Below are positions 8,600 through 64,000 of a stretch of 64,000 nucleotides of DNA, in pieces. Made by a program: the position numbers and the translations under genes. Position 1 is the stretch's first letter, and each line of letters starts with the position of its first letter. Origin of the DNA: Escherichia phage vB_EcoS_MM-2; the sequence record PV577658, one strand, 5' to 3'. The notes beneath the pieces are model-generated. The model saw only the letters and a list, made by a program, of their open reading frames with translations, made no database searches and was not told the DNA's origin.

Positions 8600-8616
8600 C
8601 TACTGAAAAATTTCAG

Positions 8617-8660: not shown

Positions 8661-8702
8661 AAGAACTATTCTGTTTAATTCTTAATTAAGGAAATATAAA
8701 AT

Positions 8703-9113: not shown

Positions 9114-9149
9114 TTTTTAGATAAATCCACCAACAAAAGGAACACAGTT

Positions 9150-9446: not shown

Positions 9447-9456
9447 GAAACCAATT

Positions 9457-9478
9457 AGCCCCTATATGGGGCTTTTTG
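9457..9478 (+). terminator. rho-independent terminator
   Basis: agcccc-tatat-ggggct hairpin followed by ttttgtg. Confidence 0.6.
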
Positions 9479-9496
9479 TGTATTTGGGATATGTAA

Positions 9497-9805
9497 ATGA
9501 GCGAACAGGTAAATCAAAACTATGAAGGACACGTTGATGACCAGTCCATCATACTTTGGGAGAAGGAGGGAGAACAAGTAAGATTAACAGTATCTGAATT
9601 TCGTGGGAATCTATACATGGGTATTCGTTACTGGCTTCTTGATATTAATGATGAGTGGTTTCCAACGAAATCTGGCTTCTCTTTTCCTTACACCCTAGAA
9701 ACAACATCACAGCTTTTCTATGCGTTTACACAGATTCTTAGCGAATCTGAGGTTTTACATGAAGTACAGAAACGAGCTGAAGAACTCAAAGCCAAGAATG
9801 CCTAG
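9497..9805 (+). CDS. hypothetical protein
   Basis: Track ORF; stop codon lies in the loop of the following terminator hairpin. Confidence 0.4.
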   Translation: MSEQVNQNYEGHVDDQSIILWEKEGEQVRLTVSEFRGNLYMGIRYWLLDINDEWFPTKSGFSFPYTLETTSQLFYAFTQILSESEVLHEVQKRAEELKAKNA

Positions 9806-9818
9806 TTCTTGGCTTTTT
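9791..9818 (+). terminator. rho-independent terminator
   Basis: gccaagaa-tgcctag-ttcttggc (8-bp stem) followed by tttttcttt. Confidence 0.6.
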
Positions 9819-9832
9819 CTTTATAAATGTAC

Positions 9833-9880
9833 TTGCTTTCAACTCAGTTTTGTTATATAATATTTATATAAATTAATGAG
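9833..9880 (+). promoter_or_regulatory. early promoter (TTGCTT-17-TATAAT)
   Basis: ttgctt..tataat then atttatataaattaatgagag downstream box. Confidence 0.55.
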
Positions 9881-9891
9881 AGGGTTGCAAA

Positions 9892-10164
9892 GTGAAAAAG
9901 ATAAGTATAAGTACACTTAAACCTTTCCCGTACATCGGACAGCCTCTTATACTTATGTGGGAGGAGAAGATTAATGGGGAAAAGTATACTAAAACTAGAA
10001 GTGGGTATAAGCTGACTTCACTTCATTACGAAAAAGAAGTATTAGTAGCTGAAATATACTCTCCGTTGTCAGATAGGCTAGTAAAAACTACATATTTGCA
10101 TCGTTGCAAAAATTATACATGGCACGGATCCACTAGACAACCCTCATACTGTGAGGCAGAATAA
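9892..10164 (+). CDS. hypothetical protein (GTG start)
   Basis: Track ORF beginning at gtgaaaaag. Confidence 0.35.
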   Translation: MKKISISTLKPFPYIGQPLILMWEEKINGEKYTKTRSGYKLTSLHYEKEVLVAEIYSPLSDRLVKTTYLHRCKNYTWHGSTRQPSYCEAE

Positions 10165-11136
10165 ATGACCAATGTAAAAGACTTTATTAAACGCTGTCAA
10201 GAAGCATATTATCAAGGTATGTCTTTAATCTCTGACGAAGAATATGATCGTCTGATTAAAAGATTTCCGTTAGAAGAAGAGATCGGGCCTAAGGGCGATA
10301 TTCCACATCTGTATCGTATGTATTCTTTACAGAAAGTTTATTATAATCGTGGAGATAAACCCCCGTTTAACCCATTAGGTCAGGTAGAAACTGATAAGTT
10401 AGATGGTTGTGCAATTTCTCTGTTATATATTAATGGCGAATTTGTTCAAGCACTAACTCGTGGTAACGGTATTCTAGGGAATGATGTCACAAGCAACGTA
10501 AGATTGCTGAACATCCCTAAAAAGATTTCCCAAAAAGTACCTACTCAAATCACTGGTGAAGTTCTAATTACAAAAGAAGTAGAAAATAAACGTAACTTTG
10601 CCTCTGGTGCTATTAACCTCAAAGATAGTGATGATTTTGTACAACGTATCGGAGAAGGTGGTTTAATCTTCGTTGCATATGGTATCCAGTGTTCTGCTGA
10701 ATCTGTAGGTATTACAGAAGCATATTTAAAAGATATGCTTTGGCTGGAGAATGAGAACTTCTTAACAGTTGTTAATGTGCGTTCTTTCTTTAAATGGATT
10801 CCGACGGACGGTAAAGTTGTTCGTATTAATGATAACAACAAATTCTTCCGTGAAGGCTGGACTAATAAATTCCCTCGTGGAGCATTCGCTATTAAAGAGG
10901 ATGAAGAAGGCGAGATTACAACTCTTACTAAAGTTGAATGGCAGGTAGGAGCTTCTGGTAAAGTAACTCCAGTTGGTTATTTCGAACCGGTAATTATTGA
11001 TGATGCTACAATTGTTAAAGCGACTCTTAATAACGTTGATTATATTAACTCTCTTGATCTAGAGATCGGTTGCCAGATTCGAGTGATTCGTGCTGGTGGT
11101 GTAATCCCGTGCATAGTAGAGCGAGTATATGATTAA
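10165..11136 (+). CDS. ligA: NAD-dependent DNA ligase, N-terminal subunit (adenylation domain)
   Basis: KxDG adenylation motif (TDKLDGCAIS), LTRGNG, and LigA-like layout. Confidence 0.75.
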   Translation: MTNVKDFIKRCQEAYYQGMSLISDEEYDRLIKRFPLEEEIGPKGDIPHLYRMYSLQKVYYNRGDKPPFNPLGQVETDKLDGCAISLLYINGEFVQALTRGNGILGNDVTSNVRLLNIPKKISQKVPTQITGEVLITKEVENKRNFASGAINLKDSDDFVQRIGEGGLIFVAYGIQCSAESVGITEAYLKDMLWLENENFLTVVNVRSFFKWIPTDGKVVRINDNNKFFREGWTNKFPRGAFAIKEDEEGEITTLTKVEWQVGASGKVTPVGYFEPVIIDDATIVKATLNNVDYINSLDLEIGCQIRVIRAGGVIPCIVERVYD

Positions 11137-16299: not shown

Positions 16300-18867
16300 T
16301 TGAAAATCGCAGTAGTTGATAAAGCTCTAAATAACACTCGTTACGATAAACATTTCCAGCTATATGGCGAGGAAGTTGATGTATTTCATATGTGTAACGA
16401 GAAGTTATCTGGTCGTTTGCTTAAAAAGCACATTACTATTGGAACACCAGAAAACCCATTTGATCCGAATGATTACGATTTTGTTATACTAGTAGGTGCT
16501 GAACCTTTCCTGTATTTCGCAGGTAAGAAAGGCATTGGTGACTATACTGGTAAACGTGTAGAGTATAATGGATATGCTAACTGGATTGCGAGTATCAGCC
16601 CAGCCCAGTTACACTTTAAACCTGAAATGAAACCAGTTTTCGATGCAACAGTAGAAAATATCCACGATATTATCAATGGTCGTGAGAAGGTTGCAAAAGC
16701 TGGTGATTACCGTCCTATTACTGACCCTGACGAGGCGGAAGAATATATCAAGATGGTGTATAATATGGTTATCGGACCTGTCGCATTCGACTCCGAAACC
16801 TCAGCACTATACTGTCGAGATGGTTATCTGCTTGGTGTTTCTATGTCTCACCAAGAGTATCAGGGTGTATATATCGATTCTGATTGTCTCACCGAGGTTG
16901 CAGTATATTATCTCCAGAAAATTCTGGATAGTGAAAACCACACTATTGTTTTTCACAACCTGAAGTTTGATATGCACTTTTATAAGTACCATCTGGGACT
17001 TACTTTTGATAAAGCGCATAAAGAACGCAGGCTCCATGATACTATGTTGCAGCATTATGTTCTAGATGAACGTCGTGGTACTCATGGCTTGAAATCTCTA
17101 GCAATGAAGTATACCGATATGGGTGACTATGACTTCGAACTAGATAAGTTCAAAGAGGATTACTGCAAAGCACATAAAATCAAGAAAGAAGATTTCACCT
17201 ATGATTTAATTCCGTTTGATATTATGTGGCCTTACGCTGCGAAAGATACCGATGCTACCATACGTTTGCACAACTTCTTCTTACCAAAAATTGAGAAGAA
17301 TGAAAAACTTTGTAGTCTGTATTATGATGTCCTAATGCCTGGTTGTGTATTTCTCCAGCGTGTTGAGGATCGTGGTGTACCTATTTCTATTGATCGTTTA
17401 AAAGAAGCTCAGTACCAGTTAACCCATAATCTGAATAAAGCTCGTGAAAAACTGTATACTTATCCAGAAGTCGTTCAGCTAGAGAAAGATCAGAACGAAG
17501 CGTTTAACCCAAACTCTGTTAAACAACTCCGTGTTCTTCTGTTTGATTATGTTGGCTTAACTCCAACAGGTAAATTGACGGATACTGGAGCAGATTCTAC
17601 AGATGCAGAAGCTCTGAACGAATTGTCTACGCAGCATCCAATTGCTAAGACTCTACTAGAGATTCGTAAGCTAACTAAGCTGATCTCTACTTATGTTGAG
17701 AAGATTCTTCTGAGTATTGATGCAGATGGTTGCATTCGTACTGGTTTCCACGAACATATGACTACTTCTGGTCGTCTGAGTTCTTCCGGTAAACTGAACT
17801 TGCAACAGTTACCTCGTGATGAATCTATTATCAAGGGTTGTGTAGTAGCTCCTCCTGGGTATCGTGTAATCGCATGGGACTTAACAACTGCGGAAGTTTA
17901 TTATGCTGCTGTTCTATCTGGTGATAGAAATATGCAACAAGTATTTATCAACATGAGAAATGAACCAGATAAATACCCCGACTTCCACTCTAACATCGCA
18001 CACATGGTATTTAAGCTCCAATGCGAGCCTCGTGATGTTAAAAAGTTATTCCCAGCTCTGCGTCAAGCAGCTAAAGCAATCACCTTTGGTATTCTGTATG
18101 GTTCTGGCCCAGCTAAAGTAGCTCATTCTGTTAACGAAGCTCTTCTGGAACAGGCTGCTAAGACAGGCGAACCGTTTGTAGAGTGTACGGTTGCAGATGC
18201 TAAAGAGTATATAGAAACTTACTTCGGTCAGTTCCCGCAGCTTAAGCGTTGGATTGATAAGTGCCATGATCAGATCAAGAATCATGGATTTATCTATAGT
18301 CACTTTGGTCGTAAACGTCGTCTGCATAATATCCACTCCGAAGACCGTGGTGTTCAAGGTGAAGAAATCCGTTCTGGATTTAACGCAATCATTCAGTCTG
18401 CTTCTTCTGATAGTCTCCTTTTAGGTGCTGTAGATGCAGATAATGAGATCATTTCTCTTGGCCTAGAACAAGAGATGAAGATTGTTATGCTGGTTCACGA
18501 CTCCGTAGTTGCTATTGTTCGTGAGGATTTGATCGACCAATACAATGAAATCCTAATTCGTAATATTCAGAAAGACCGCGGTATTAGTATTCCTGGCTGT
18601 CCGATTGGTATTGATTCAGATTCTGAAGCTGGAGGTTCTCGCGACTACTCTTGTGGTAAGATGAAGAAACAGCACCCATCAATCGCTTGTATTGATGATG
18701 ATGAATATACTCGTTATGTCAAGGGTGTATTACTTGATGCAGAATTCGAGTATAAGAAACTAGCTGCAATGGATAAAGAGCATCCAGATCATAGCAAATA
18801 CAAGGATGATAAGTTTATTGCTGTATGTAAAGATTTGGATAACGTGAGAAGGATTCTCGGTGCTTGA
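16300..18867 (+). CDS. family-A DNA polymerase with 3'-5' exonuclease domain
   Basis: 855 aa; exo motif FDSETS, motif A WDLTTAEVYY, motif B RQAAKAITFGILYG, motif C LVHDSV; TTG start after AGGAG. Confidence 0.9.
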   Translation: MKIAVVDKALNNTRYDKHFQLYGEEVDVFHMCNEKLSGRLLKKHITIGTPENPFDPNDYDFVILVGAEPFLYFAGKKGIGDYTGKRVEYNGYANWIASISPAQLHFKPEMKPVFDATVENIHDIINGREKVAKAGDYRPITDPDEAEEYIKMVYNMVIGPVAFDSETSALYCRDGYLLGVSMSHQEYQGVYIDSDCLTEVAVYYLQKILDSENHTIVFHNLKFDMHFYKYHLGLTFDKAHKERRLHDTMLQHYVLDERRGTHGLKSLAMKYTDMGDYDFELDKFKEDYCKAHKIKKEDFTYDLIPFDIMWPYAAKDTDATIRLHNFFLPKIEKNEKLCSLYYDVLMPGCVFLQRVEDRGVPISIDRLKEAQYQLTHNLNKAREKLYTYPEVVQLEKDQNEAFNPNSVKQLRVLLFDYVGLTPTGKLTDTGADSTDAEALNELSTQHPIAKTLLEIRKLTKLISTYVEKILLSIDADGCIRTGFHEHMTTSGRLSSSGKLNLQQLPRDESIIKGCVVAPPGYRVIAWDLTTAEVYYAAVLSGDRNMQQVFINMRNEPDKYPDFHSNIAHMVFKLQCEPRDVKKLFPALRQAAKAITFGILYGSGPAKVAHSVNEALLEQAAKTGEPFVECTVADAKEYIETYFGQFPQLKRWIDKCHDQIKNHGFIYSHFGRKRRLHNIHSEDRGVQGEEIRSGFNAIIQSASSDSLLLGAVDADNEIISLGLEQEMKIVMLVHDSVVAIVREDLIDQYNEILIRNIQKDRGISIPGCPIGIDSDSEAGGSRDYSCGKMKKQHPSIACIDDDEYTRYVKGVLLDAEFEYKKLAAMDKEHPDHSKYKDDKFIAVCKDLDNVRRILGA

Positions 18868-46495: not shown

Positions 46496-46978
46496 TTAGC
46501 CTCCAACACCGGGATTAACCGTTACTGTGCATGCAGTAGAAGGTTTACTAACTTTCTTGCTATCTGTAACCGTTACTTTATAGACTCCCGAATCATCAGT
46601 AGCTGCTGCAGGCTTAGTATAGGTAGCTCCTGAAGCATCTGGAATAGGAGAACCATCTTTAGTCCATGCATAAGTATATGGACCAGTACCGCCGGTTGCA
46701 GTAACTGAAAGGGTTAATGCTGCTCCCTCTTCAACGGACATGCTAGCAGTTAAATCTTTAGAAAGAGTTAATGGTGGAGCAGGAGGAACTGCTTTACCAT
46801 ATGCCTCTACAAATTTCTTCCATACTTTACGGTTAGTATGCGCAGATGAAAGTCCTAGTTCTCTACGCAGAAAAGCGTAACTAGGAACATATTTATGCGC
46901 AGCAACCGTAGCAAAGAAGATATGAGATTCTGGCAGTTTTTCACCAAAAATGGTCTTTAGACCATTATAATCAATCAT
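46496..46978 (-). CDS. capsid decoration protein with Ig-like domain (T5 pb10-like)
   Basis: C-terminal Ig-like segment (LTLSVTATGGTGPYTYAWTKDGSPIP...GVYKVTVTD). Confidence 0.55.
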   Translation of the reverse strand: MIDYNGLKTIFGEKLPESHIFFATVAAHKYVPSYAFLRRELGLSSAHTNRKVWKKFVEAYGKAVPPAPPLTLSKDLTASMSVEEGAALTLSVTATGGTGPYTYAWTKDGSPIPDASGATYTKPAAATDDSGVYKVTVTDSKKVSKPSTACTVTVNPGVGG

Positions 46979-48192
46979 TCTTTATCTCCCTCGGTGGAAC
47001 CTTGAGGTCTACCACCTTCTTGACCAGACACACCTGTTGCAGAACCAGCAACGTTAGCAGGAATACGAATCTTATCCATCTGCTCATCATCTAAAGGTTC
47101 AAGGTTCAGCTCTAAACGAGCTTCGTTACCAGTCATAATACCATTATTAACCAATGAGGTTAAATGTTTAGCCTCAGCTTCTTTATCTGGTGTTAATGCA
47201 GCTACTTCCTTAGTATTAGGAGTAATCTTATAACCAAAAAAGAAAGTAAGAGAACTAGTCAGTTTGTTCAGCATAGGAATGATAGTCATGTAATAGAACA
47301 GTTCGATATTTGGTCGAATGTTCGCGTTATTACCACCATCAAGTAACACTTGCGGAACACCAAAGGCTAGACAGATAGATTTATTAAATCCTTCAATGTC
47401 TTCCTTAAAGTCTAGATCTTTAAAAGAGGATATTTGGGAGTACGGTTTAGCTTTCATACCACCATCTAGAATCAGGACAGAGGACTGACCAGTACTAGGA
47501 TTATAATCTAGTTGTAATTCTTCTTGTTTACGCTCACGCAATTTCTTGTTCAGGATTTCATCCGTCTCAAGAATAAGTCCAATCACGGTTCCGTTATCGA
47601 GGAATTTCTCTTTAAAGTTAAGCATCTTAGAACGCTTCTCAAGAGAATCAATAACAGTAGCAACACGAGATTGTCCAGAAATTTGAGAATTTGTGCCACA
47701 CACGTAACTGTTATCCTTTATAAAGATAATCTCATCTACGCGATAGTCTATCTGGTTATTAAATATAAATTTTTTGATAAACTTATTGGCATCTGCCTCT
47801 ACTTGCATTAATGCAGCAGGGACATGGTAAAGTGCTGTGCCATCCCAATAGATGTATGCACAACCTTCAAAAAGTAGGTCAGTGACTACAAGTCTACGGA
47901 ATGTGCTTATATCCATGAATGGATTAGGTCGTACATTTAAGAGAGTGTCTAGAGTCTTTGCCTTGATGCCATTGGCATACGTGACAATATTATATTTATC
48001 TCCGACAGTATAAGAACACTCCGCCGCACTATCTATAACCATATTAGCAGTTCTATTGAGAATCTCAATTTTACTGTAGGCTTGTCCAGTGGTAAAAGGC
48101 TTACGGTTAGTGCGATGACTAACTGGTTCCATGTCTCTTATAATACGTTGACCCGGATTTAGCTTTTCAGTAATCCAGCTTTTAAAACCCAT
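46975..48192 (-). CDS. portal protein
   Basis: 405 aa between terminase/HNH and decoration/protease genes. Confidence 0.65.
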   Translation of the reverse strand: MGFKSWITEKLNPGQRIIRDMEPVSHRTNRKPFTTGQAYSKIEILNRTANMVIDSAAECSYTVGDKYNIVTYANGIKAKTLDTLLNVRPNPFMDISTFRRLVVTDLLFEGCAYIYWDGTALYHVPAALMQVEADANKFIKKFIFNNQIDYRVDEIIFIKDNSYVCGTNSQISGQSRVATVIDSLEKRSKMLNFKEKFLDNGTVIGLILETDEILNKKLRERKQEELQLDYNPSTGQSSVLILDGGMKAKPYSQISSFKDLDFKEDIEGFNKSICLAFGVPQVLLDGGNNANIRPNIELFYYMTIIPMLNKLTSSLTFFFGYKITPNTKEVAALTPDKEAEAKHLTSLVNNGIMTGNEARLELNLEPLDDEQMDKIRIPANVAGSATGVSGQEGGRPQGSTEGDKE

Positions 48193-53659: not shown

Positions 53660-53770
53660 TTTGACTTTTGCCAAATTTCATAAGATTACACATGGAGGTG
53701 TGTCCAGTGGGTCGGGGGAGAATACTTAGTCTGCTAACCGCCACCCCCCGTTACTATTATCATGGTAATT

Positions 53771-53807
53771 GTTTCACCCTGCAATTAAAATGGTTGCAGG
53801 GTGAAAC
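53771..53807. terminator. bidirectional terminator hairpin (perfect 14-bp stem)
   Basis: gtttcaccctgcaa-ttaaaatgg-ttgcagggtgaaac between the plus-strand peptide array and the minus-strand dmp-like gene. Confidence 0.7.
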
Positions 53808-53824
53808 AATTTCAACTTTAATTA

Positions 53825-54601
53825 TTACGCAACTTTTAATTTCTCGATATATTGTTGCGGGCTGCAACTATATTCTGCGCGTTCTTCCTCGGTCATACCT
53901 TCCCAACATAATTTCAAACGATCAGCTAGGAATTGATAATCATTATCATCATCGAGGGATTCATCAATAAAGGTTTCACCTATCAATGCCACGCCGATTG
54001 ATAGAATATCGTTAACGGCTTGCGCGTCCAGCGTTTTAAATCCGTATGATGCCGCCGCTGATAGTACACCCTTATGATCATCAATCATTGTAAAATCAGC
54101 GTTCGGATATAACTGTTTAAATAATTCAAAATAATAAGATTTATAAACTGCGTCTTTGCTGTGGTATATCTCGCTAACTTTATCAGCCTCAAAATATTTA
54201 TGCAGTGTATCGCGAGAAAACACGCGGATATTACTATCACCACGACCGCGCAAGCCTTGTTTGCGCAAATAATAATAGTCCGACTTGCTCATTAGTCGAG
54301 CGGTACAAATAATGTTTAAAGTATTTGCGTCATTCATGCACTGGCGCATATATGTAACAAGGGGCAATAAAGTATCTTGCATTATTAAATCATGTTTGCA
54401 GGCTTCATTTTTATACTTATTTAAATCTAAATTGCCCTCGCTATCAAAGCAAGGCGCTACACGATGGAAAGAATTAATGATAGTGCCGTCCAGATCCCAA
54501 ATCATGACGCGGGAAATATGCGGGAAATTACGGGTAATATTCATTTTAACTTGATTCATTTTGTTACGTTCTCCATTAAAGGGATTTAGTTTATCCAGCA
54601 T
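53825..54601 (-). CDS. dmp: HAD-family 5'-deoxyribonucleotidase-like protein (T5 dmp-like)
   Basis: HAD motif I MIWDLDGTI; first gene of a minus-strand operon with A1/A2-like genes; likely internal start giving ~244 aa. Confidence 0.55.
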   Translation of the reverse strand: MLDKLNPFNGERNKMNQVKMNITRNFPHISRVMIWDLDGTIINSFHRVAPCFDSEGNLDLNKYKNEACKHDLIMQDTLLPLVTYMRQCMNDANTLNIICTARLMSKSDYYYLRKQGLRGRGDSNIRVFSRDTLHKYFEADKVSEIYHSKDAVYKSYYFELFKQLYPNADFTMIDDHKGVLSAAASYGFKTLDAQAVNDILSIGVALIGETFIDESLDDDNDYQFLADRLKLCWEGMTEEERAEYSCSPQQYIEKLKVA

Positions 54602-54639
54602 TACCCGCTATTTATAAGCGGGTAATAATAAATCAACTA

Positions 54640-55032
54640 TTAAAGACCATAAGCCAACGCATCAGCGATAAAACTAACATCCTCACCGGATACGCTAGAA
54701 CGAATCCCCGCGCAGGTGTATACCTTTGCGCTCGCTAGCTGATCATCAAGGCAAGCGGGGCAAGGCGCGACAACTGCAAAGGCTAGACCAGATTTTACCG
54801 CGTCAATAATGATTGTTTCTTGTTTCATCGTGTCAACATAAACGCCTTTTGCTTTAATATGGCTGGTTAGTTTGCCTTGCGTATAGGCAAAGGTAGTAAC
54901 CTGTAAAGCGTCATTGAAATCTAATAATTCATCAATAACGTGCCCCGCCTCGACGTGGTAACGTTCACCATTAGAATAAACCAGAACAATGGAAGACTGA
55001 GCGCGATCGAATGGAATATTTTGCTTTTTCAT
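54640..55032 (-). CDS. small Cys/His-containing protein, possibly deaminase-like zinc-binding
   Basis: HVEAGH ... PCPAC motifs, but spacing (~70 aa) is longer than in canonical cytidine deaminases. Confidence 0.3.
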   Translation of the reverse strand: MKKQNIPFDRAQSSIVLVYSNGERYHVEAGHVIDELLDFNDALQVTTFAYTQGKLTSHIKAKGVYVDTMKQETIIIDAVKSGLAFAVVAPCPACLDDQLASAKVYTCAGIRSSVSGEDVSFIADALAYGL

Positions 55033-55071
55033 ACTTATAAAACTCCAATTAGTTTAATATAGGGATTTAAT

Positions 55072-55362
55072 TTATTTGATAATAATCTGCATCTGGTACG
55101 GCGTTAATTCACCGTTTACGGGTAAATTATTATCGCTTAGCCACTCATAAAAAGCGCCATCATCATCAAAAGGAACAACATCATTATCACGATAATCGAT
55201 GGAAATAATGCCATCCGTATTAGTTTTGGCGGCTAGGATAGGCCCAAAGCTGTAAACTTTATCGGATTCCATTTCATCCGGTGAGATGAATGCTTTTTCG
55301 TCCAATGTTTTGGGTAATGTAACTTTCATTTTTTGACTCCTGTAATAGCGGCTATATTTCAA
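55072..55362 (-). CDS. hypothetical pre-early protein (likely start at Met ~55329)
   Basis: Track ORF with conserved upstream translation-initiation region. Confidence 0.4.
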   Translation of the reverse strand: MKYSRYYRSQKMKVTLPKTLDEKAFISPDEMESDKVYSFGPILAAKTNTDGIISIDYRDNDVVPFDDDGAFYEWLSDNNLPVNGELTPYQMQIIIK

Positions 55363-55382
55363 GCCGCTAGGGGATAATTTAA

Positions 55383-57047
55383 TTACGCGAAAAATTTACC
55401 GTTTTTAAAGTCAATCAAAGTGCGCTGACCGTTTGCATAGGTAATTAAATGCGTTTGCGTCCAGCTTGACGCGCCAACGTTGTAACCCATATCCAGACTA
55501 CCAGCTACGCCAGCGGTATAAACGCCACCGTAAATGCTAGCGGTATGGGTGTGTCCCGTGTTTAGCTTGCCCAATTTCTTAAACTGTTTAGGATTGCCAC
55601 GACTGCCGTTAATGCCGTTGTGACCGTGTACGCCGCACTCAATGCCTGCAATCTTGAAAGATTGATCAGTGGTTAGGAAAATGGCGTTAAACTCACAACC
55701 TGCAACCTTGCGCAGCGCATAATCTAGCACGTTAAAAGTATCATCATGATCACTGATCGCCGCGTAAATTGCAGCATTCAGGCGGTGATATAGTTCGGCG
55801 TTGGCTGGATCGTCTTTGATGTTAGCATTACGATCATCTAACCAGCGGGATAGCGCCAAATCGTGATTAGATTCAACAATGATTGTTTGAGAGAAATCAC
55901 GTTCCATTGATTCCAGCACGCGCCCCGTATCGATAAGATCATCCAGAACTTTATCACGTCCAGCGGCATACTGTTTTGCTAGGAATACACCGGATGCACG
56001 GTTATGATGATTGCGCGATGTAAAATCATGCACGTCATGGATAAACTGATATTTTGGTTTAAGAATATCAAGCAAGCTATTTTCGCCAGCCCATGACGCA
56101 ACGGCACAATCATCATCTAATTTTTCCGCATGAATATCGCCATACTGCAAGCCTAAAACATGCCCCGATGTTTCATAGCATCCGGCAGGAGTAGCGCAAA
56201 CATTCAGATCATAAAACACCCCGCTTTCGTCCATTGTTTCAAGCTGGCGAACAAAAAATTCCCCGTCCTCGTCGAACTCAACAATCAGCGCGCCGAAGTT
56301 ATGCAGAGCTTCCGCTTTTTGTCCTGCTTTCTGCTGAATATAGTTTTTAAGCGTTGCCGTTCCGGTTGAATACATACGGCGCACTACTTCACCTTTTAAA
56401 GCTGGCACGCTTTCAGCGGTGATTTTAGCGTGACCAATTGCCAGCCCCTCAATATTGAGCGCCGTTGCAGTTTCTGCAAATCCTGAAAGCGGGTAATCTG
56501 CGGTTGGCAAAACATTAATTTCAGCCATGAAAGCAAAACGGCGGTTATTTAAAAACACGTTTTTGCTGCAAATATATTTATCAAATGCGGGATCGTATTT
56601 GATACCGTCTGCACCTTCTTCATTCTGGAAGCCATTTTTATTATAAATATACTTAGAAACAAGCAAATCAGCACCGATATATTCAGCGAATTTTTCCAGA
56701 CTTGCTAAAAAGTTTTTATGCGGGAAAGTATTATTTTGAATCGACGTAATAATAAAGCGTTTACCCTGTTTTACTTCCCATTGCTCAACCGTACTAGAAA
56801 CAATTCCCGCCGCTTCTGGGCGCTCATCGTTTTTAATGGCTTTTGCTACTTTTGCCGCTTTCGGTTTAGCTGGTTTATTTGCTTCCAGCCAGTCGCAGAT
56901 AGCGGTTGAATGCTTCGTTGTATCGTAGACCGCTTTTGATATATCGTCGCAGACTTCCAGTTTAGTAGCGCGCAGACGTTTACCATAGAAATTAAAGTCA
57001 GCGGCCATTTTCAGGATAACGGTTTGTTTTTCTGCGGAAATAATCAT
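55383..57047 (-). CDS. A1: A1-like pre-early protein with calcineurin-like metallophosphoesterase motifs
   Basis: 554 aa; GDIHAE and GHTHTAS metallophosphatase-type motifs; size and context match T5 A1 as I recall it. Confidence 0.6.
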   Translation of the reverse strand: MIISAEKQTVILKMAADFNFYGKRLRATKLEVCDDISKAVYDTTKHSTAICDWLEANKPAKPKAAKVAKAIKNDERPEAAGIVSSTVEQWEVKQGKRFIITSIQNNTFPHKNFLASLEKFAEYIGADLLVSKYIYNKNGFQNEEGADGIKYDPAFDKYICSKNVFLNNRRFAFMAEINVLPTADYPLSGFAETATALNIEGLAIGHAKITAESVPALKGEVVRRMYSTGTATLKNYIQQKAGQKAEALHNFGALIVEFDEDGEFFVRQLETMDESGVFYDLNVCATPAGCYETSGHVLGLQYGDIHAEKLDDDCAVASWAGENSLLDILKPKYQFIHDVHDFTSRNHHNRASGVFLAKQYAAGRDKVLDDLIDTGRVLESMERDFSQTIIVESNHDLALSRWLDDRNANIKDDPANAELYHRLNAAIYAAISDHDDTFNVLDYALRKVAGCEFNAIFLTTDQSFKIAGIECGVHGHNGINGSRGNPKQFKKLGKLNTGHTHTASIYGGVYTAGVAGSLDMGYNVGASSWTQTHLITYANGQRTLIDFKNGKFFA

Positions 57048-57137
57048 AGTAATAAAACTCCATTAAAGGGATTAGATTAATAACGGCAATATTGCCAAAT
57101 ATAACGCCTCAAATAATAGGCGTTATAATTTGCAACA

Positions 57138-57335
57138 TTAATTTAAAGGCACTAGGCTAGAACTAACACCACAAGCAACGGCAGCGATAAAACAAAGCAA
57201 GCCCAAACGTTTTGCTAATTTAGATTTACGTTTAAAATAATATGAATCTAAATCATTTTGAAAATAAGCGAACAATAACGAGGGCGCCATAATAAACAAG
57301 CCTAGAATTAATGATTCAGTAGGATAAAAGATCAT
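57138..57335 (-). CDS. small membrane protein (two predicted TM helices)
   Basis: MIFYPTESLILGLFIMAPSLLFAYF ... LGLLCFIAAVACGVSS; AGGAG RBS. Confidence 0.4.
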   Translation of the reverse strand: MIFYPTESLILGLFIMAPSLLFAYFQNDLDSYYFKRKSKLAKRLGLLCFIAAVACGVSSSLVPLN

Positions 57336-57429
57336 TTTAAAAACTCCTGATTTAAGGGAAGAAAATAACTATCGCTAAACAGTTATATTATTGCCCCCTC
57401 ACTAAAAAAAGGGGGGCAAGGTATAACTA

Positions 57430-57837
57430 TTATTCGCCTGCGGCTTGTTTTACTTCCTCGGCAACGCCTAACAATTGCGCTACTGCGTCCAGCGTTTCAA
57501 GTTTTGCACTTTCAAGGCTTGCCAGATCATCGGCATCTTTGATAATGCCGGAATCGATAGCGTGTTTTGCAATAACGCGTACATAATGAGCTTTGCGGAT
57601 TGAACTACCGCCGCCAACTTTGCGGGGCTTACCGCTTTTTTGATATGCTTTTGCGCTGGTCAATTTTGACCGAACGGATACGGGAGAAGCCGCGCCTACT
57701 GCTTTTGCAATCTCTTTCAGGCCGTCGCTATTTGCGAAATCTAAACCGTTTTCATTAATTAACTGTTGATACATGGAAACAGCTTTCTGAGTGTTTTCTT
57801 CATTCCATGCGAATTTTGCGGTTTTAGCGTTAGTCAT
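57430..57837 (-). CDS. A2: A2-like pre-early DNA-binding protein
   Basis: 135 aa (~15 kDa), basic central region; position upstream of the A1-like gene. Confidence 0.5.
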   Translation of the reverse strand: MTNAKTAKFAWNEENTQKAVSMYQQLINENGLDFANSDGLKEIAKAVGAASPVSVRSKLTSAKAYQKSGKPRKVGGGSSIRKAHYVRVIAKHAIDSGIIKDADDLASLESAKLETLDAVAQLLGVAEEVKQAAGE

Positions 57838-57933
57838 GATGTAACTCCTATTAGTTTAATTTAAGGGATTAGATTAACTTAATGTTAATCGTTATATCCC
57901 CCTGAAATAAGGGGATATAAAGTTAACACTAAT

Positions 57934-58185
57934 TTACAATACAGCTTCCCATTTTTCGTTGCGTTGAACAACCTTTACAACATCGCCGGATTTAACGCGA
58001 ACGCTAAAAACGGGCTTGCCGTTGTTACTACGTTCATTTTCAGCGTATACCGCGTCGATTGTATCGAACGGCATAAGCGCCGCACCTTTAATACGTTCGG
58101 CCTTTCCGGTTAATTCATCCGTTTTAGTAACGAAAGGAATGAAGACGAATTGACCAACTTTCGGCGCGGTAATAACGTTTTGCAT
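57934..58185 (-). CDS. hypothetical pre-early protein
   Basis: 83 aa; first gene of the minus-strand block. Confidence 0.4.
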   Translation of the reverse strand: MQNVITAPKVGQFVFIPFVTKTDELTGKAERIKGAALMPFDTIDAVYAENERSNNGKPVFSVRVKSGDVVKVVQRNEKWEAVL

Positions 58186-58415
58186 AATATAAACTCCTAG
58201 TTATTTGGGGATTGTTCCGCATTACCTGCTAGAAAGTAACAGCAGGTAATAAGTAACAATCCGCTCGCCAATATAATCAATTTTAAAGAACTCCACGTAG
58301 GCCGCTATATCCCGTTAGGGGGCGGGATGCATTATGGTAAGCACCGACCGTCAAATTTTATCAAGTTATCGCTCTTATCGAACTGGGTACATCTTAAAAC
58401 CTATCGGCTAGGTTG

Positions 58416-58619
58416 TCAAACAATTTTTTGCAATTTTTTATGATTTTCTTTTAGGTCAATCATAATATTTCGCCAGATCATTTCCAGACCTTGCTGGCGA
58501 CCTTTCTTGTACTGCGTGAATCTATATCTTACTGATCTTTGAGCTACTGTCAACAAATTTTTTGTTTTGCTATCTAGTGCCTTAATAGGCTTGCCAGTGA
58601 TCAAAAGCGTTTGTTTCAT
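58416..58619 (-). CDS. hypothetical small basic protein
   Basis: 67 aa, Lys/Arg-rich; weak RBS. Confidence 0.3.
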   Translation of the reverse strand: MKQTLLITGKPIKALDSKTKNLLTVAQRSVRYRFTQYKKGRQQGLEMIWRNIMIDLKENHKKLQKIV

Positions 58620-59066
58620 ATCGTCGATTCCTTATAATGAATAAGTTTACCGCCGATAGGCTTTAAGATGTACCCAATTTTTAAAGAGCGTGGCGGTAAA
58701 CTTCCCGCCGTGTAGTTCGTCATTGCCGCCCTACGAGATAAATAATAGGGGATTCCCGAAAATGGCGCAACCTTATTTTTGTAAAGAAATGTAAAGGTAA
58801 AACTCACCGGACACCGTGCGGCGACGGCCTAAAATTAAAAGAAACGGGCGCGCGAATACCACAAAATAAAGCAAATAGGCAAGTAATTTTTTCATTTATA
58901 TTTGCTTTGCCCTACTTGACAAAATCTAAAAAGCTCGTGGTAACGATAAACGGCTTATCCCCTTATGATGGGATGGCTAAAAACTTTATTGCGTTCTGGA
59001 GCGTTTTAGGCGCATTCTAGCCTTGTTGATAACTTATCCCCAAAAGCAAAAATGAAATTTTCCTAG

Positions 59067-59099
59067 TTATCCACTTGACTTTTATTTTCCAGTGGATAA
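59067..59099. promoter_or_regulatory. inverted pair of DnaA-box-like 9-mers around a TTGACT hexamer
   Basis: agTTATCCACTtgacttttattttccAGTGGATAAct; 11-bp perfect inverted repeat, each arm one mismatch from TTATCCACA. Confidence 0.5.
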
Positions 59100-59273
59100 C
59101 TACTTATTTTATGAAATAAATTAATTGACTTTTATTTGTTAGTATGCATCGGAAAGATAGCAGACTAATAATTGCTAGAATGATAATCATGCTGGTGGAT
59201 TGTAACGACCTGAATTATTAGCAGACTATTAATCACGGAAAAATCTCATTAGCCAACTAACTATTTCATGATA

Positions 59274-59300
59274 TATAATATACATATAAATTAATGAGAA
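59274..59300 (+). promoter_or_regulatory. promoter-like element of the early family
   Basis: tataat followed by atacatataaattaatgagaaa box; no convincing -35; no gene for ~430 bp downstream. Confidence 0.35.
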
Positions 59301-59351
59301 ATAATAACTATAAGAAATCATCTAGCTAAGTGAGAACCACTATCATTTAAG

Positions 59352-59372
59352 TTATACACAAAGTTATCCACA
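59352..59372 (+). promoter_or_regulatory. two adjacent DnaA-box-like sites
   Basis: gTTATACACAaagTTATCCACAgc: one perfect consensus 9-mer and one with a single mismatch. Confidence 0.5.
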
Positions 59373-59443
59373 GCACTTTTTGACTTGACACGATAGGCGG
59401 CGATATAAGGACTTTTACACAGACTTATCTACAGGTTATTCCA

Positions 59444-59459
59444 CTGTATAAATATACAG
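59444..59459. promoter_or_regulatory. LexA (SOS) box-like palindrome
   Basis: CTGTATAAATATACAG fits CTGT-N8-ACAG with AT-rich spacer. Confidence 0.45.
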
Positions 59460-59726
59460 GGTAAAAAGGTAGTGTTAACAACTGCAATCAATTTTAAGCG
59501 GCTTAAATCGCATTCTAACGAGCTAAACGCTGCGGGGTAATATTAAAGTAAAGCCTTAATGCGTCGCCCTGGTGGCTTCGCCGTGGTTTGCTCTTTATTG
59601 CACCGCTGCGCGGTTAGCATAAAAATAGGCGCTAGGCAAGGAAAATAAAAAGGTAAAATAATATTTGCCTATGCTAGAAATTTACCTTTATCATTCACTC
59701 ACCGATTAACGAGGGAGGCCGAACAA

Positions 59727-60506
59727 ATGAGGCTTTATAAACCTGATAATGCCACCGTTTTAAAAGGTGCATTGCGCAACCTGCTGGATGGTAGCAAGTC
59801 AACCAGCATTAAACATTTTATTAACAAGATTGAAACTATTCATCAAAACTTTTTTGATGATTATGACGCTTATGATATGGATAGTTTTCTACCCTTATAT
59901 AGACAAGGGGCAACGCTAGTTTTATATAATCGGGATTGCCATATCTTTACAGGCAGGGGAGCGGGGCCGGATACCGATTTTATTGTTGCGCAGGGTAATA
60001 ATATTGTTGCGTATCATAGCAATTCAGGCCGTCAATCATTTAATATAAATAGTTTTGAGCTTATTGGACTTGATCTGATAAATGGACTTTCTAGCATTGA
60101 GGGATTTTTAGATGTTATCTGGAAGTATTTACCCGCTGGATGGCATAAGCCGGATAACGACGGATCTCAATATACCGGTATAATGGCTTTTGATGGCGAC
60201 GGTAATTTTTTGTTACCACGGGAGCTATACCCATATATTTATGATGGGGATATAGAAAGCGCTGGTTTTTCTTTCTGGAAAGATGAAGATCAGATTATTG
60301 ACAGCGTAGAAAACCATGCTGTAAATTCTAACACTCAAAGCGTTAACACTCAAACTACTGAAAACAAAGGAAAAAACACTATGACCAAGATTGCTAACAT
60401 CGTTGCCGCTAATAAATCCGCCGTTGTAAATGCTGCAAAACTGGAAGCGGGTAAAATTGCACTGACTCAAATCACGAAAGTAGCGGCTAAAAAGCACCGT
60501 TCATGA
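59727..60506 (+). CDS. hypothetical protein, 259 aa
   Basis: Track ORF with RBS GAGGGAGG; no recognisable motif. Confidence 0.45.
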   Translation: MRLYKPDNATVLKGALRNLLDGSKSTSIKHFINKIETIHQNFFDDYDAYDMDSFLPLYRQGATLVLYNRDCHIFTGRGAGPDTDFIVAQGNNIVAYHSNSGRQSFNINSFELIGLDLINGLSSIEGFLDVIWKYLPAGWHKPDNDGSQYTGIMAFDGDGNFLLPRELYPYIYDGDIESAGFSFWKDEDQIIDSVENHAVNSNTQSVNTQTTENKGKNTMTKIANIVAANKSAVVNAAKLEAGKIALTQITKVAAKKHRS

Positions 60507-60736
60507 TTAAAGGCTATATTGATACGCCGATTGGTCGAGTAGTGATTGCTAACCTGCTAAGTGTAGCGGTTGACCAGTACGCACCGACTAACCAGAAAGC
60601 GAAAGCGGTAGCAGGGGCGGCTATGGAAGCGGCAATGCTGGAAATGGTGCAAAGTTTTAACATCGCTGAAATGATTGATGAAATGGTGAAAGGTATTGAT
60701 ATTTCTACTTTTACCACTAGCACCGAAATCGAGTAA
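60503..60736 (+). CDS. hypothetical protein
   Basis: Track ORF, ATGA overlap with upstream gene. Confidence 0.4.
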   Translation: MIKGYIDTPIGRVVIANLLSVAVDQYAPTNQKAKAVAGAAMEAAMLEMVQSFNIAEMIDEMVKGIDISTFTTSTEIE

Positions 60737-60801
60737 TAATATTTAGTGGGGATTATTTCCCCACTTTACTACTCCCTTGTTAATTAATAGGAGGCTAACT
60801 A

Positions 60802-61296
60802 ATGGCTGAGGAAAAATACGGCTTCTCGCTAGGAGAAGTGAGCACGGCTAAACATGATATGATCATTTTAGTCGATTGTCATACTGGCTATTGCGGAGAA
60901 GGGAACACCGAAGAATACTTTGTTCCTGCTGGTACGGATCTGGACGCTTTCGCTCATGAAATGGCTATTGATAATGCTTCTCGTTTTGGTAGCGATGGCT
61001 ATGAAGACGAAGAAACTGGCGAATGGTATGAAAATGAAAACGTATATGCAAGCCTTTATCATTATCAGCTAAGTAAATCCGGCACATATGTAAACGGCGG
61101 CGATCCTATTAATTCCGTCATGAAATTAATTATTAAATATGGTGGCGTCGAGATAATTGATAACAAAGCGGTAATATACGCAAACCGATTAAAACAGCTT
61201 GTTTATATTCCTGATAGTACCCGATGGGATGAATACGCTGTTTTGCATGACGAATTGAAACGATGTTTCAATATTGAATCCCTGCAAGTAGTCTAA
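60802..61296 (+). CDS. hypothetical acidic protein
   Basis: Track ORF with RBS AGGAGG. Confidence 0.45.
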   Translation: MAEEKYGFSLGEVSTAKHDMIILVDCHTGYCGEGNTEEYFVPAGTDLDAFAHEMAIDNASRFGSDGYEDEETGEWYENENVYASLYHYQLSKSGTYVNGGDPINSVMKLIIKYGGVEIIDNKAVIYANRLKQLVYIPDSTRWDEYAVLHDELKRCFNIESLQVV

Positions 61297-61323
61297 TGTA
61301 AAGTTTTGTAAAGGTCGCCTTTT

Positions 61324-61632
61324 ATGGTGGCCTTTTTTGTTATAATGCTTTTACACCAAAACGGTGGATTGAAAATTTTCCCAAAAATTTGGAGGCTTAA
61401 AATGGTTGCTTATTCTTCTGCTAGTCATCTGTTTACCGCGCAAGGCTGGGTATCTAATCGTGCTGTCATCTATGAAATGGTGCAGGAGTTCGGCATTGCT
61501 AAAACTTATAATACCATTCAGGAACTATATAACGCCGATAAAATCGATCAGCAAACGGCTGGCTTTTTACTGGATACCCTGAAAGCTGAACATTGCACTA
61601 AAAAACAAGCCGCTAAAATTGTTTTAATGTAA
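61324..61632 (+). CDS. hypothetical protein (likely start at Met ~61402)
   Basis: GGAGG RBS precedes the internal Met; followed by hairpin cggggcg..cgccccg. Confidence 0.4.
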   Translation: MVAFFVIMLLHQNGGLKIFPKIWRLKMVAYSSASHLFTAQGWVSNRAVIYEMVQEFGIAKTYNTIQELYNADKIDQQTAGFLLDTLKAEHCTKKQAAKIVLM

Positions 61633-61681
61633 TTAATAACGGGGCGTTACTTTCGCCCCGATAACTAGGAGGCTATCACAA

Positions 61682-61832
61682 ATGGTTATTTTTCGATCTA
61701 TTTTAGCGGGTATCTTGGGCGCTATTTTATCGTTATTTGCGATAGCTTTCGGCGTTCACGCTGTTATTATTGGCGCTGGCATTGCTGCGTTTTCTTATCT
61801 GCTGGGCTGCATGACTAGTAAAGGAGAATAAA
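61682..61832 (+). CDS. small membrane peptide (~50 aa)
   Basis: Hand-translated: MVIFRSILAGILGAILSLFAIAFGVHAVIIGAGIAAFSYLLGCMTSKGE; AGGAGG RBS. Confidence 0.35.
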
Positions 61833-61833
61833 A

Positions 61834-62046
61834 ATGATCCGCAACGTTTCCCTTGCACGTTCGAAAGGCTTTAAGCTGGTGGATGTTAACACGTTCGAGT
61901 GGGAAGATTGTAAAATCGAATATGTAGCACGTAACAAAAATGCCTTTCGTGTTACCGAGAAAAAATTTGATAAGCGCGGCAACGTGATAGCTGAAACAGT
62001 TAAACATTTTGCCACCTTTTACGCTGCTTTCCGTGGGGTATTATGA
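61834..62046 (+). CDS. hypothetical protein
   Basis: Track ORF. Confidence 0.4.
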   Translation: MIRNVSLARSKGFKLVDVNTFEWEDCKIEYVARNKNAFRVTEKKFDKRGNVIAETVKHFATFYAAFRGVL

Positions 62047-62146
62047 TTCAGCAAATTAAAACGGCTTTTCGTTTTTGGGGCGTCCTGCCTTCAATTGGTT
62101 TTATTCTGATAATTATTAGTCAGCTAATGATCATCGGCGGAACTAT

Positions 62147-62506
62147 TTGGGAGCTATGCAAATGATAATTTATGAAGGCAATCGCTTTGTTGCTAATTGC
62201 CGTCCGGCATTATTAGCAAACTATTTAAACCAGCTTTCCCCAGCTTATAAGGGCGTTATTAATATTTATGAGGGAAAGGCGCATTATAAAATTAATGCGG
62301 TCGTTGCCCGTGAACTAGCATTTCAATTTTTGACCTTTGCATCTTGTGACGTTCAGGTTATGGGTGAGGCATTAATCGCGGAAAATGAAGAGGATTTTAT
62401 TAATATTTTCCGTAAGGTATGCACTGAGCGCTTGATAATGAAAGGCGCGTATATTCAATCAACTGCGGAAAGTATTGAAACAGCATTTCGAAAGGTGGCG
62501 CAATGA
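62147..62506 (+). CDS. hypothetical protein
   Basis: Track ORF. Confidence 0.4.
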   Translation: MGAMQMIIYEGNRFVANCRPALLANYLNQLSPAYKGVINIYEGKAHYKINAVVARELAFQFLTFASCDVQVMGEALIAENEEDFINIFRKVCTERLIMKGAYIQSTAESIETAFRKVAQ

Positions 62507-62606
62507 GATTATATATTTTCGTTGGTAATGTTAAGGCAGCTAATGATTCCGCTGGTGGCGACAACGTTCGCCACCATTGGCAAAAATATATTTACTAGGA
62601 GTTATT

Positions 62607-62711
62607 ATGTCTGGTTTAATGTTTACCTTATTAGTAGTTTATAGCATAATTACGGCAGGAATAGTAACTTATGTTACTAGTAAAATTTGGCCGGGAATAT
62701 ATGGTAATTTT
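62607..62711 (+). CDS. small membrane peptide (~34 aa)
   Basis: Hand-translated: MSGLMFTLLVVYSIITAGIVTYVTSKIWPGIYGNF; RBS AGGAG. Confidence 0.3.
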
Positions 62712-62729
62712 TAATAACGGAGCGTTATT

Positions 62730-62933
62730 ATGAGCAATAAAATTATTGTAACCAAAATCAGTACAATGGTTGATGTTTTTTACGTGCCAGATACGCCGGA
62801 GAATCGGCAAGCGGTCGAGCGGGGCGAATATGATAAAGTGATTTATGATCACGATGGTTATTATCAGTATTTGGTGGATTCCTACGGGGAGGAGGAGAAG
62901 ATCACGCATCGACTACCGGAGGAGGGTTTATGA
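62730..62933 (+). CDS. hypothetical acidic protein
   Basis: Track ORF with RBS ACGGAG. Confidence 0.4.
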   Translation: MSNKIIVTKISTMVDVFYVPDTPENRQAVERGEYDKVIYDHDGYYQYLVDSYGEEEKITHRLPEEGL

Positions 62934-63083
62934 AACGATGGTTTAATCACTGGTACAAGCGGTTTTTAGTACGCCGTCGCAAGTCTAGGCATCAAGATGA
63001 GTGGCGGGAGTGGGCAAAGCGTAACGGTTGCCCGCTACTATAATAATCACGGGGCGCAACTATCGGGAAGTGCCCCCAATTCT

Positions 63084-63106
63084 CAAATGAGAATCATTCT
63101 CATTTG
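63084..63106. repeat. perfect 11-bp-arm palindrome caaatgagaat-c-attctcatttg
   Basis: Core aatgagaatcattctcatt recurs at ~63474 (imperfect) and ~63581 (perfect). Confidence 0.7.
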
Positions 63107-63299
63107 ACCGCGCCCGCGATGGTTAGCCTGCTAATGATTAGGGTGTTACGTGTCGCCTTGTGTGATCGTTAGCGAGCTAACTAATTTTCAAGCCTCCTCC
63201 AATTTTGCCCTTGTTTTAGTATCTCCACCAAAATTAAACGCGTTAGAATGCGATCTAGGACGTTTTAACGCTATATTAGAATTATTCACTGCGTAGGAA

Positions 63300-63319
63300 T
63301 ACTGTATATTTATACAGTA
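63300..63319. promoter_or_regulatory. LexA (SOS) box-like palindrome, 19/20 match to consensus
   Basis: TACTGTATATTTATACAGTA versus TACTGTATATATATACAGTA. Confidence 0.5.
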
Positions 63320-63399
63320 GGATAAGCTGTGATAAGTCTGTTAATAACACCCCAAAATGGCTAGGATTCTGTCAAGTCAAATCGTGCTGTTAATAAGTC

Positions 63400-63408
63400 T
63401 GTGGATAA
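63400..63408 (-). promoter_or_regulatory. DnaA-box-like site (perfect 9-mer on minus strand)
   Basis: tgtggataa is the reverse complement of TTATCCACA; flanked by repeated gataagtctgt. Confidence 0.45.
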
Positions 63409-63426
63409 CTTAAATAATAGTGTTTC

Positions 63427-63600
63427 TCACTTCCGTTCTTAAATACGAATCACTATCATTTGCGTTCCACTTTCTAAATGAGAATCATTCTGCTTTTTAA
63501 AGGAGAATCGTTTCACTTCCTGAATAATTCTCACTTCCATTCTTAAATGCGAATTATTATCATTCTCATTCCGCTTTTTAAATGAGAATCATTCTCATTA
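63427..63600. repeat. two ~70-100 bp imperfect direct repeats carrying the aatgagaatcattctcatt palindrome
   Basis: ctcacttccgttcttaaatacgaatcactatcatt... and ctcacttccattcttaaatgcgaattattatcatt..., each ending in the palindrome core. Confidence 0.65.
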
Positions 63601-63639
63601 TCATTCGCATTCAGGCGAGCAGGGCAATTGCCCTGCGCT

Positions 63640-63760
63640 TTTGTGCAAATCCGACATTGCTCCACGGGTGTTACGTGCGGGCGTGTATGTGCGAATCCCT
63701 GTGGGGTATGTGCAAATCCGACACGGTTTTTCTAGGATTAAGATGTGCGAATCCGACAAG
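63640..63760. repeat. four iteron-like copies of ATGTGC(A/G)AATCC(GACA)
   Basis: tgtgcaaatccgaca, tgtgcgaatccctgt, tgtgcaaatccgaca, tgtgcgaatccgaca at ~20-35 bp spacing. Confidence 0.65.
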
Positions 63761-63770
63761 ATTTTTGTGA

Positions 63771-63960
63771 CTTCGATTGGAGGGTGTGTGATTGTGTGAG
63801 TTTGGGGAGAAGTTGAGAGAGCGAGAAAAATTTGAGGGAACTGCGGGAGGGGCGCATGTTTGGTGCGGAGCACCTGATTTGCGGGGATTTTGGGGAAGAG
63901 TTGAGAAGATTTGGGTTAATTTGAGATTAGTGCAGAAAAAGTAAAATTTTATTAGCTAAA
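63771..63960 (+). other. polypurine, C-depleted tract with repeated (t)ttgag(a/g) motifs
   Basis: Almost no C on the plus strand; gttgagagag, tttgaggg, gttgagaag, tttgagattag; no credible ORF. Confidence 0.5.
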
Positions 63961-64000
63961 TGGAGCAAAATAGCTTGACAAGTGAAAATTCTTGTGGCTC

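Follow-up and report, generated by a model that had tools for sequence, protein, structure and literature searches.

Two palindromes in the terminal repeat of Escherichia phage vB_EcoS_MM-2, at 59442–59461 and 63300–63319 of the 64,000-nucleotide stretch of sequence record PV577658 analyzed here (the window), are of SOS-box grade and resemble the LexA operators of Escherichia coli far beyond chance. They are the ends of an already described repeat associated with the injection stop of T5, where they adjoin pairs of DnaA boxes and are conserved across the Demerecviridae, a setting that goes beyond the original prediction made from the sequence of the window. Our tentative reading, held with somewhat less than even confidence, is that the palindromes are genuine high-affinity LexA-type sites of the Gammaproteobacterial kind, forming part of a module for two host factors, LexA and DnaA. 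Judged by their sequence, the boxes appear to be LexA-like in the physical sense, yet not classical SOS operators. We infer that LexA occupies them in vivo; a role of the module in the injection stop or the restart of transfer is speculative.

Sequence, score and setting of the two boxes

The right box, on the side of the injection stop (TACTGTATATTTATACAGTA, 63300–63319), matches the consensus TACTG(TA)5CAGTA at 19 of 20 positions, with position 11 as its sole mismatch. The left box (CACTGTATAAATATACAGGG, 59442–59461) contains a perfect 16-bp core of the form CTGT-N8-ACAG (CTGTATAAATATACAG, 59444–59459), which is identical in T5. Both the near-consensus SOS box on the right and the CTGT-N8-ACAG palindrome on the left had been reported in the original prediction, and both were found where it had placed them. 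The bare CTGT-N8-ACAG pattern is not significant alone, since the window contains three matches against 0.92 expected and 7 of 100 shuffled sequences also reach three; for this reason a 20-bp weight matrix was built, using 22 E. coli LexA operators. With this matrix the right box scores 25.3 bits, more than any of the 22 training sites (range 12.6–24.1 bits; consensus 27.0 bits), and the left box scores 20.9 bits, inside the training range. Among 300 first-order Markov simulations of the window, each of 64 kb, the mean best score was 13.2 bits and sites of at least 20 bits occurred at a mean of 0.003 per sequence, so that comparable matches are not scattered at random, the outcome that the proposed matrix check had been designed to detect. 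The boxes therefore combine the 20-bp pattern of an SOS box with matrix scores in the range of validated operators (as represented by the training set) and above background.

The next-best LexA-like 20-mers of the window are AACTGTATACTTATCCAGAA at 17450–17469 (16.7 bits), inside an open reading frame (ORF) at 16300–18867 on the plus strand, and TACTGTAGGCTTGTCCAGTG at 48072–48091 (14.9 bits), inside an ORF at 46975–48192 on the minus strand. The latter is kept in many relatives, probably through coding constraint. Altogether four sites of at least 14 bits are present in the window against 0.38 expected.

The phage is a Tequintavirus, 99.8% identical to vB_EcoS_MM-1 in the box region, in keeping with its earlier description as a virulent T5-like phage. 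A complete terminal repeat occupies 53702–64000 and equals the terminal repeat (LTR, 1–10407) of vB_EcoS_MM-1; as the window stops exactly at the end of the repeat, this copy is the right terminal repeat, which is identical in content to the left one. Both palindromes lie inside it, and their assignment to a terminal region was therefore correct.

A large imperfect inverted repeat (131 bp in T5) has the boxes as its inner ends; its arms run from 59328 to 59459 and from 63302 to 63432. Beyond the left box, the IRC-spacer-IRD segment of the left arm (59328–59441, plus strand) contains two DnaA-box pairs, TTATACACA (59352–59360) with TTATCCACA (59364–59372) and TTTTACACA (59413–59421) with TTATCTACA (59425–59433), and matches the description of IRC-spacer-IRD given for T5 (Davison, bioRxiv 10.1101/866236). 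The right arm, IRD'-spacer-IRC' (63320–63432, minus strand), is situated inside the annotated injection stop signal (iss) of AY543070 and carries its DnaA-type boxes on the minus strand: TGTGATAA at 63328–63335, which is one base short, TGTTAATAA at 63339–63347 and again at 63388–63396, and TGTGGATAA at 63400–63408. Boxes of a pair are 3 bp apart and the nearest pair is 8 bp from the LexA-type box. Each module of about 200 bp thus consists, in order, of a CTAG-rich motif, some 30 bp of intervening sequence, the LexA-type box, the 8-bp gap, a DnaA pair, a 52-bp spacer and a second DnaA pair. The two modules are inverted relative to each other and flank the variable second pre-early operon (59727–62933, plus strand), which corresponds to the region of T5 genes 011–017. 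Inverted arms of about 131 bp around the 011–017 operon, paired DnaA/DnaA* boxes and a right arm within the iss together identify the element as the T5 injection-stop inverted repeat.

On the operon side of the left box, about 30 bp away, lies a second conserved motif of the GAATGCG...CTAGGACGTTTTAG type (59493–59527), and its inverted-repeat counterpart (GTTAGAATGCGATCTAGGACGTTTTAA) is found at 63234–63268. The motif (GAATGCG...CTAGGACGTTTTAG / GGAGCGTTTTAGG) recurs about 30 bp from each box in the Enterobacterales lineages and is also present at 58990–59020 of the window. In phages of Proteus, Pectobacterium and Vibrio it directly abuts extra copies of the box.

Other repeats are found nearby. 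Dense 30-nt direct and inverted repeats of the AAATGAGAATCATTCTCATT type fill positions 63076–63605 and correspond to T5 palindromes E–J and DRC/DRE; they extend just to the right of the right arm, beside the T5 7.9% nick, and are not accounted for by binding of LexA and DnaA. A further palindrome, TAGTTATCCACTTGA...TCCAGTGGATAACTA (59051–59115), carries DnaA-like boxes in each of its arms, with a TTGACT hexamer between them, and is located near the A2-A1 pre-early promoters, in the part of the repeat that corresponds to Repeat Region 1 of T5 (IRA/IRA').

The leftward operon with A2, A1 and dmp lies to the left of the arms; gene A2 (57430–57837, minus strand) encodes a pre-early DNA-binding protein that is a rival candidate ligand of the palindromes. 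The operon between the arms runs rightward and has been described as a divergent region transcribed from the opposite strand (Davison, bioRxiv 10.1101/866236). Within it, overlapping ORFs at 59727–60506 (259 aa) and 60503–60736 (77 aa) cover residues 5–256 and 260–334, consecutively, of the 336-position DUF7566 profile (Pfam), indicating that the homologue of T5.011 is split by a frameshift in the window. It is split in AY587007 too and is a single 336-aa gene in AY543070; sequencing error, a genuine frameshift or recoding might each account for the split.

Conservation of the module among T5-like phages

Relatives were collected by searching IMG/VR with the A1 protein, which returned 66 loci. 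Both boxes are present in every close relative (A1 at least 92% identical) in which the region is present. The right box is almost invariant among them, and its variants (CTGG, GTAC, ACAC and CACTG) are all known from natural LexA sites. Across this range the whole inverted repeat is highly conserved and the box no more so than its neighbours. More distant lineages also carry sites, namely Klebsiella phage Roth49 (A1 73% identical), Pectobacterium phages My1 and DU_PP_V (66–68%), Serratia phage Slocum, Proteus phage M4H10_20 (42%) and the Vibrio phages D124, PG07 and Dax (31–34%); Vibrio phage Brizo, the record of which begins next to A1, was left out of the comparison. Each divergent lineage has one to three sites of 18.5–25.3 bits upstream of A1, at least one of them beside DnaA-type boxes.

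When the injection-stop-side boxes adjoining DnaA boxes were aligned from ten lineages, box positions A2, C3, T4, G5, A7, T8 and A9 in one half and A15, C16, A17 and G18 in the other were invariant, and variation was found at the centre (AAAT, ATTT, ATCC or AATT) and at T1, T6, T19 and A20. Mean information per position was 1.62 bits in the box, 1.39 bits over 20 nt of the DnaA-side flank and 0.81 bits in the other flank. Compared with E. coli LexA operators, the information profile gives a correlation of r = 0.62 (0.75 when symmetrised). Injection-stop-side boxes thus display the conservation expected from LexA contacts, with CTG and CAG fixed and the centre free, the exceptions elsewhere being left boxes with TTG and additional copies with ATG. 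The alignment shows the putative LexA-type site to be conserved at least as well as the DnaA boxes across the family.

Phages differ in the two central bases of the right box, which are either AA or TT (TATAAATATA / TATATTTATA; window 63300–63319, locus L001 4831–4850, and loci L002–L041). The centre of the left box is nearly always in one orientation. The flip may have arisen by recombination or inversion involving the two arms, or the two states may simply be neutral.

The module is confined to these phages. A blastn search with 216 bp of it matched 535 phage records, all T5-like and with two or four copies each, the alignment to Vibrio phage PG07 extending over the box and DnaA part only; neither plasmids nor 5,426 E. 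coli genomes gave a match. A homology of the module to plasmid or chromosomal origins was rejected on the same grounds. In 596 Gb of prokaryotic genomes the composite pattern CTGTAT-N4-ATACAG-N10-TGTKGATAA has a single occurrence, on a mis-binned T5-like fragment of 3 kb, and its 42 occurrences in IMG/VR are all on T5-like contigs. These searches show the candidate composite of box and DnaA sites to be exclusive to T5-like phages. Among metagenomic homologues of A1 (36–47% identical; loci L042–L067), neither DnaA-box pairs nor LexA-type sites of at least 14 bits were detected upstream of A1. Homologues of A1 are also widespread outside the Demerecviridae, in phages of Rhizobium, Caulobacter and Flavobacterium, and these loci are therefore probably not T5-like.

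T5-like sequences also appear under unlikely labels. Salmonella, Citrobacter and Brucella isolates include contigs the size of a whole phage genome (109–123 kb), and a contig of 51 kb is assigned to Enterococcus; another of 3 kb, labelled "Clostridia bacterium MAG", shares 85–89% identity with the window, and there are T5-like "Listeria phage" records. Such labels suggest contamination, mis-binning or persistent infection of the isolates. With regard to a carrier state, T5-like phages are not mentioned in two reports on virulent phage genomes in bacterial isolates.

Host LexA as the proposed ligand and competing explanations of the palindromes

A site so close to consensus should bind LexA at nanomolar affinity, and resident LexA would encounter the phage DNA only seconds after it enters. 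Enterobacterales and Vibrionales share one LexA motif, which would explain the constancy of the phage motif across divergent lineages: it remains at the Gammaproteobacterial LexA consensus, and the DnaA boxes at the DnaA consensus, even though A1 is only a third identical. In the proposed mechanism LexA and DnaA would load onto the first-step-transfer DNA and form a nucleoprotein complex on it while it is paused; the complex would organise or anchor this DNA at the point of stop and restart. Its role would be architectural rather than transcriptional, with no promoter repressed. A bolder version, which we think quite unlikely, makes host LexA and DnaA a working part of the two-step entry of T5: the complex would hold or mark the paused DNA, and LexA occupancy would tune the resumption of transfer in the second step. 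Occupancy would then be lost when breakdown of host DNA driven by A1 activates RecA, or through prior induction of the SOS response. If this were true, the SOS repressor would serve a virulent phage as a structural checkpoint of genome entry and not as a transcription switch.

Several observations weigh against binding of LexA as the purpose of the boxes. The left box is the weaker of the two, and in several close relatives its CTG is changed to TTG. Sites in the relatives were located with the same matrix, trained on those 22 operators, that defines their likeness to LexA operators, so that the resemblance was partly selected for; the constant placement beside DnaA pairs is independent of the matrix. 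Extra promoter-proximal copies in several lineages, among them those of Pectobacterium and Vibrio phages, mostly read ATGTAT in place of CTGTAT, which would make LexA bind less well and would suit a ligand that recognises TGTATA...TATACA and does not require the C. Phage ESCO40, which has both boxes (25.3 and 22.2 bits), is recorded on DH5alpha. This host is recA1, and RecA-dependent cleavage of LexA is accordingly dispensable for growth. The T5 tail corresponds, by our estimate, to several hundred base-pair equivalents, and at the pause the right box may lie inside the channel through tail and envelope, beyond the reach of cytoplasmic proteins. Its distance from the calculated shear point is some 270–290 bp, on the left side (Davison, bioRxiv 10.1101/866236). 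Lastly, a T5 mutant with a deletion that reaches from hegG to gene 017 has been described as viable with small plaques; if contiguous, this deletion would remove the left module.

The palindromes might instead be sites for a phage protein, most plausibly the essential pre-early protein A2, alone or together with A1. In that case the match to the LexA consensus would be accidental or a means of competing with LexA; taken together, these possibilities are unlikely but deserve serious weight. Both A2 and A1 are conserved in all Demerecviridae and required for second-step transfer. The putative recognition helix of A2 (..SVRSKL..) is kept between the window phage and the Vibrio phages at 39–40% identity, which counts further against the LexA-site reading, as A2 could hold a single specificity throughout the family and be the real ligand. 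The half-degenerate extra copies (ATGTATAAATATACAGT) retain the inner core and not the C that is critical for LexA, as a ligand other than LexA might demand. Set against this, half-site, spacing and outer TA agree with the LexA consensus at 19 of 20 positions, which would take a large coincidence if the ligand were unrelated to LexA, and the injection-stop-side boxes at DnaA boxes keep CTG and CAG while T6 varies (CTGG), the pattern of tolerance shown by LexA. So near-consensus a sequence should moreover bind LexA whatever the role of A2. A structure search with A2 gave LexA only as an insignificant Foldseek match (E = 2.8), and A2 is therefore not a LexA mimic by fold; no LexA homologue or LexA-like repressor encoded by the phage was found in the window.

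Less probable again, and in our view rather a poor prospect, is that the palindromes act as DNA structure (a cruciform or hairpin) or as signals for recombination or packaging, without any sequence-specific repressor. Perfect palindromes of 16–20 bp do mark the inner edge of each arm of the 131-bp inverted repeat, which encloses a highly variable gene cassette; in the right terminal repeat this region is some 700 bp short of the physical genome end, a plausible place for packaging signals. The annotation of A1 is that of a metallophosphoesterase, with a nuclease-type fold, and cutting by A1 at a palindrome has been proposed (Davison, bioRxiv 10.1101/866236). The pattern of substitution is at odds with such a role: half-site changes (T6 to G, T8 to C and T14 to C) are uncompensated in the partner half, no compensatory changes were seen among the boxes of the relatives, and protein recognition therefore fits better than hairpin pairing. 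It is a specific sequence (ACTG.ATA / ACAG) that is conserved and not symmetry alone, the centre (AA or TT) is non-palindromic, and the other palindromes of the region have no such match to the consensus of a host factor. A structured RNA was also considered and rejected, an Rfam search of 58700–64000 at E-values up to 1 yielding weak chance matches only.

The original prediction had supposed that SOS control might link pre-early or terminal functions to DNA damage in the host. As classical SOS operators the boxes would repress a pre-early or terminal promoter and expression would follow host DNA damage, which we consider very unlikely. A promoter-like TTAACA-16-TATATT (10 of 12 positions) does span the left box on the minus strand, and the box centre (TATAAA/TATATT) is −10-like; the −35 element of this match is lost in T5, by our reading of the alignment, and the asymmetric centre (AAAT or ATTT) flips between phages, so that no single −10 reading is kept. 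No −35/−10 pair around the boxes is conserved across lineages, nor is a −35 element at the sigma-70 spacing of 16–18 bp upstream kept among the relatives. Three T5 pre-early promoters have been characterised experimentally, P-H22, P-D/E20 and one just upstream of gene 011. These promoters and T5P3/T5P4 are about 180–220 bp or more from the boxes; neither in the window nor in T5 does an annotated or experimentally known promoter overlie a box. The boxes thus neither overlap nor adjoin a conserved promoter, and the supposed link to DNA damage was not supported. The right box, furthermore, is downstream of the operon terminators and faces non-coding DNA, and a relative with both boxes grows on a recA1 host.

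Also in favour of an operator role are extra copies of the palindrome in Proteus, Pectobacterium and Vibrio relatives, 2–13 bp upstream of TTGACA/TTGGCA hexamers facing the A2-A1 operon. In these other Demerecviridae the copies occupy the interval that separates the two diverging pre-early operons (L039 at 6012 and 6216; L037 at 948 and 6250; L072 at 5438; L074 at 4388; L069 at 9629; L070 at 10939), and are absent from the window. They are often half-degenerate (GCATGTAT / CTATGTAT) where they precede TTGACA/TTGGCA, and are followed, about 10–17 bp on, by an alternating purine-pyrimidine GC-rich tract (e.g., ACACGCATACGCGCG). It is possible that they represent a promoter-associated variant of the module.

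The suggestion that the boxes are decoys, with each virion genome bringing in four strong sites, two in either terminal repeat, that titrate LexA and derepress the host SOS regulon as phage copies accumulate, is scarcely credible: T5 destroys host DNA within minutes, half of it being degraded in about 4 min, and host expression is shut off before replication, so that derepressing host genes has no obvious use, and titration leaves the fixed 8-bp spacing to the DnaA boxes and the inverted-repeat architecture unexplained.

Relation to the T5 repeat regions and to other systems

The arms of the window are the same element as the published IRC-spacer-IRD (Repeat Region 2) and IRD'-spacer-IRC' (Repeat Region 3) of T5, which has the same paired DnaA boxes 3 bp apart and the same 52-bp spacer. 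The right box is the homologue of "palindrome D" of GenBank AY587007 (9330–9349), which overlaps IRD', and in AY543070 it falls inside the feature "injection stop signal (iss)" at 9140–10149. DnaA boxes next to the palindromes have previously been read as sites for a host protein (Davison, bioRxiv 10.1101/866236), and the sole sequence-based proposal for the injection stop so far invokes them; a 2023 paper on phage BF23 states that experimental work on the functional role of the repeat-region sites is lacking. Neither LexA nor SOS occurs in the preprint (Davison, bioRxiv 10.1101/866236) or in the BF23 paper, and no literature linking T5 or T5-like phages with LexA or SOS boxes was found in the library searched, though an earlier remark elsewhere is possible. 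Palindrome, inverted repeat and DnaA boxes were therefore already known; what is new here is the LexA-type identity of the palindrome and its conservation throughout the family. How entry of T5 DNA stops after 8% of the genome and later restarts is a question more than 50 years old, to which a consensus-grade LexA-type site joined to DnaA boxes adds a second host factor that is easily manipulated. It would be unusual for an obligately lytic phage to keep SOS boxes outside any promoter.

In their match to the consensus (19 of 20 positions for the right box), in scores on a level with or above those of validated operators and in their information profile, the boxes are like the SOS boxes of E. 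coli recA, sulA, umuDC and dinD; unlike these, they are off promoters, in non-coding DNA and at a fixed distance from DnaA boxes, with no evident regulated gene. Co-option of LexA by temperate phages is known from CTXphi and from the tum gene of coliphage 186. The temperate phage GIL01 likewise carries sites for host LexA on its DNA and reads the SOS state of its host (PMC6182141). In GIL01, CTXphi and 186, however, the LexA sites are operators of a promoter governing lysis-lysogeny or lytic development, whereas T5-like phages have an obligately lytic life cycle and the boxes described here are not tied to a promoter. A different parallel is the cosB region of phage lambda with its IHF sites, where host DNA-binding proteins act at a non-coding cis region in DNA transactions and not in transcription. 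There the protein is IHF and the process packaging; here they would be, putatively, LexA with DnaA and the pause in genome entry.

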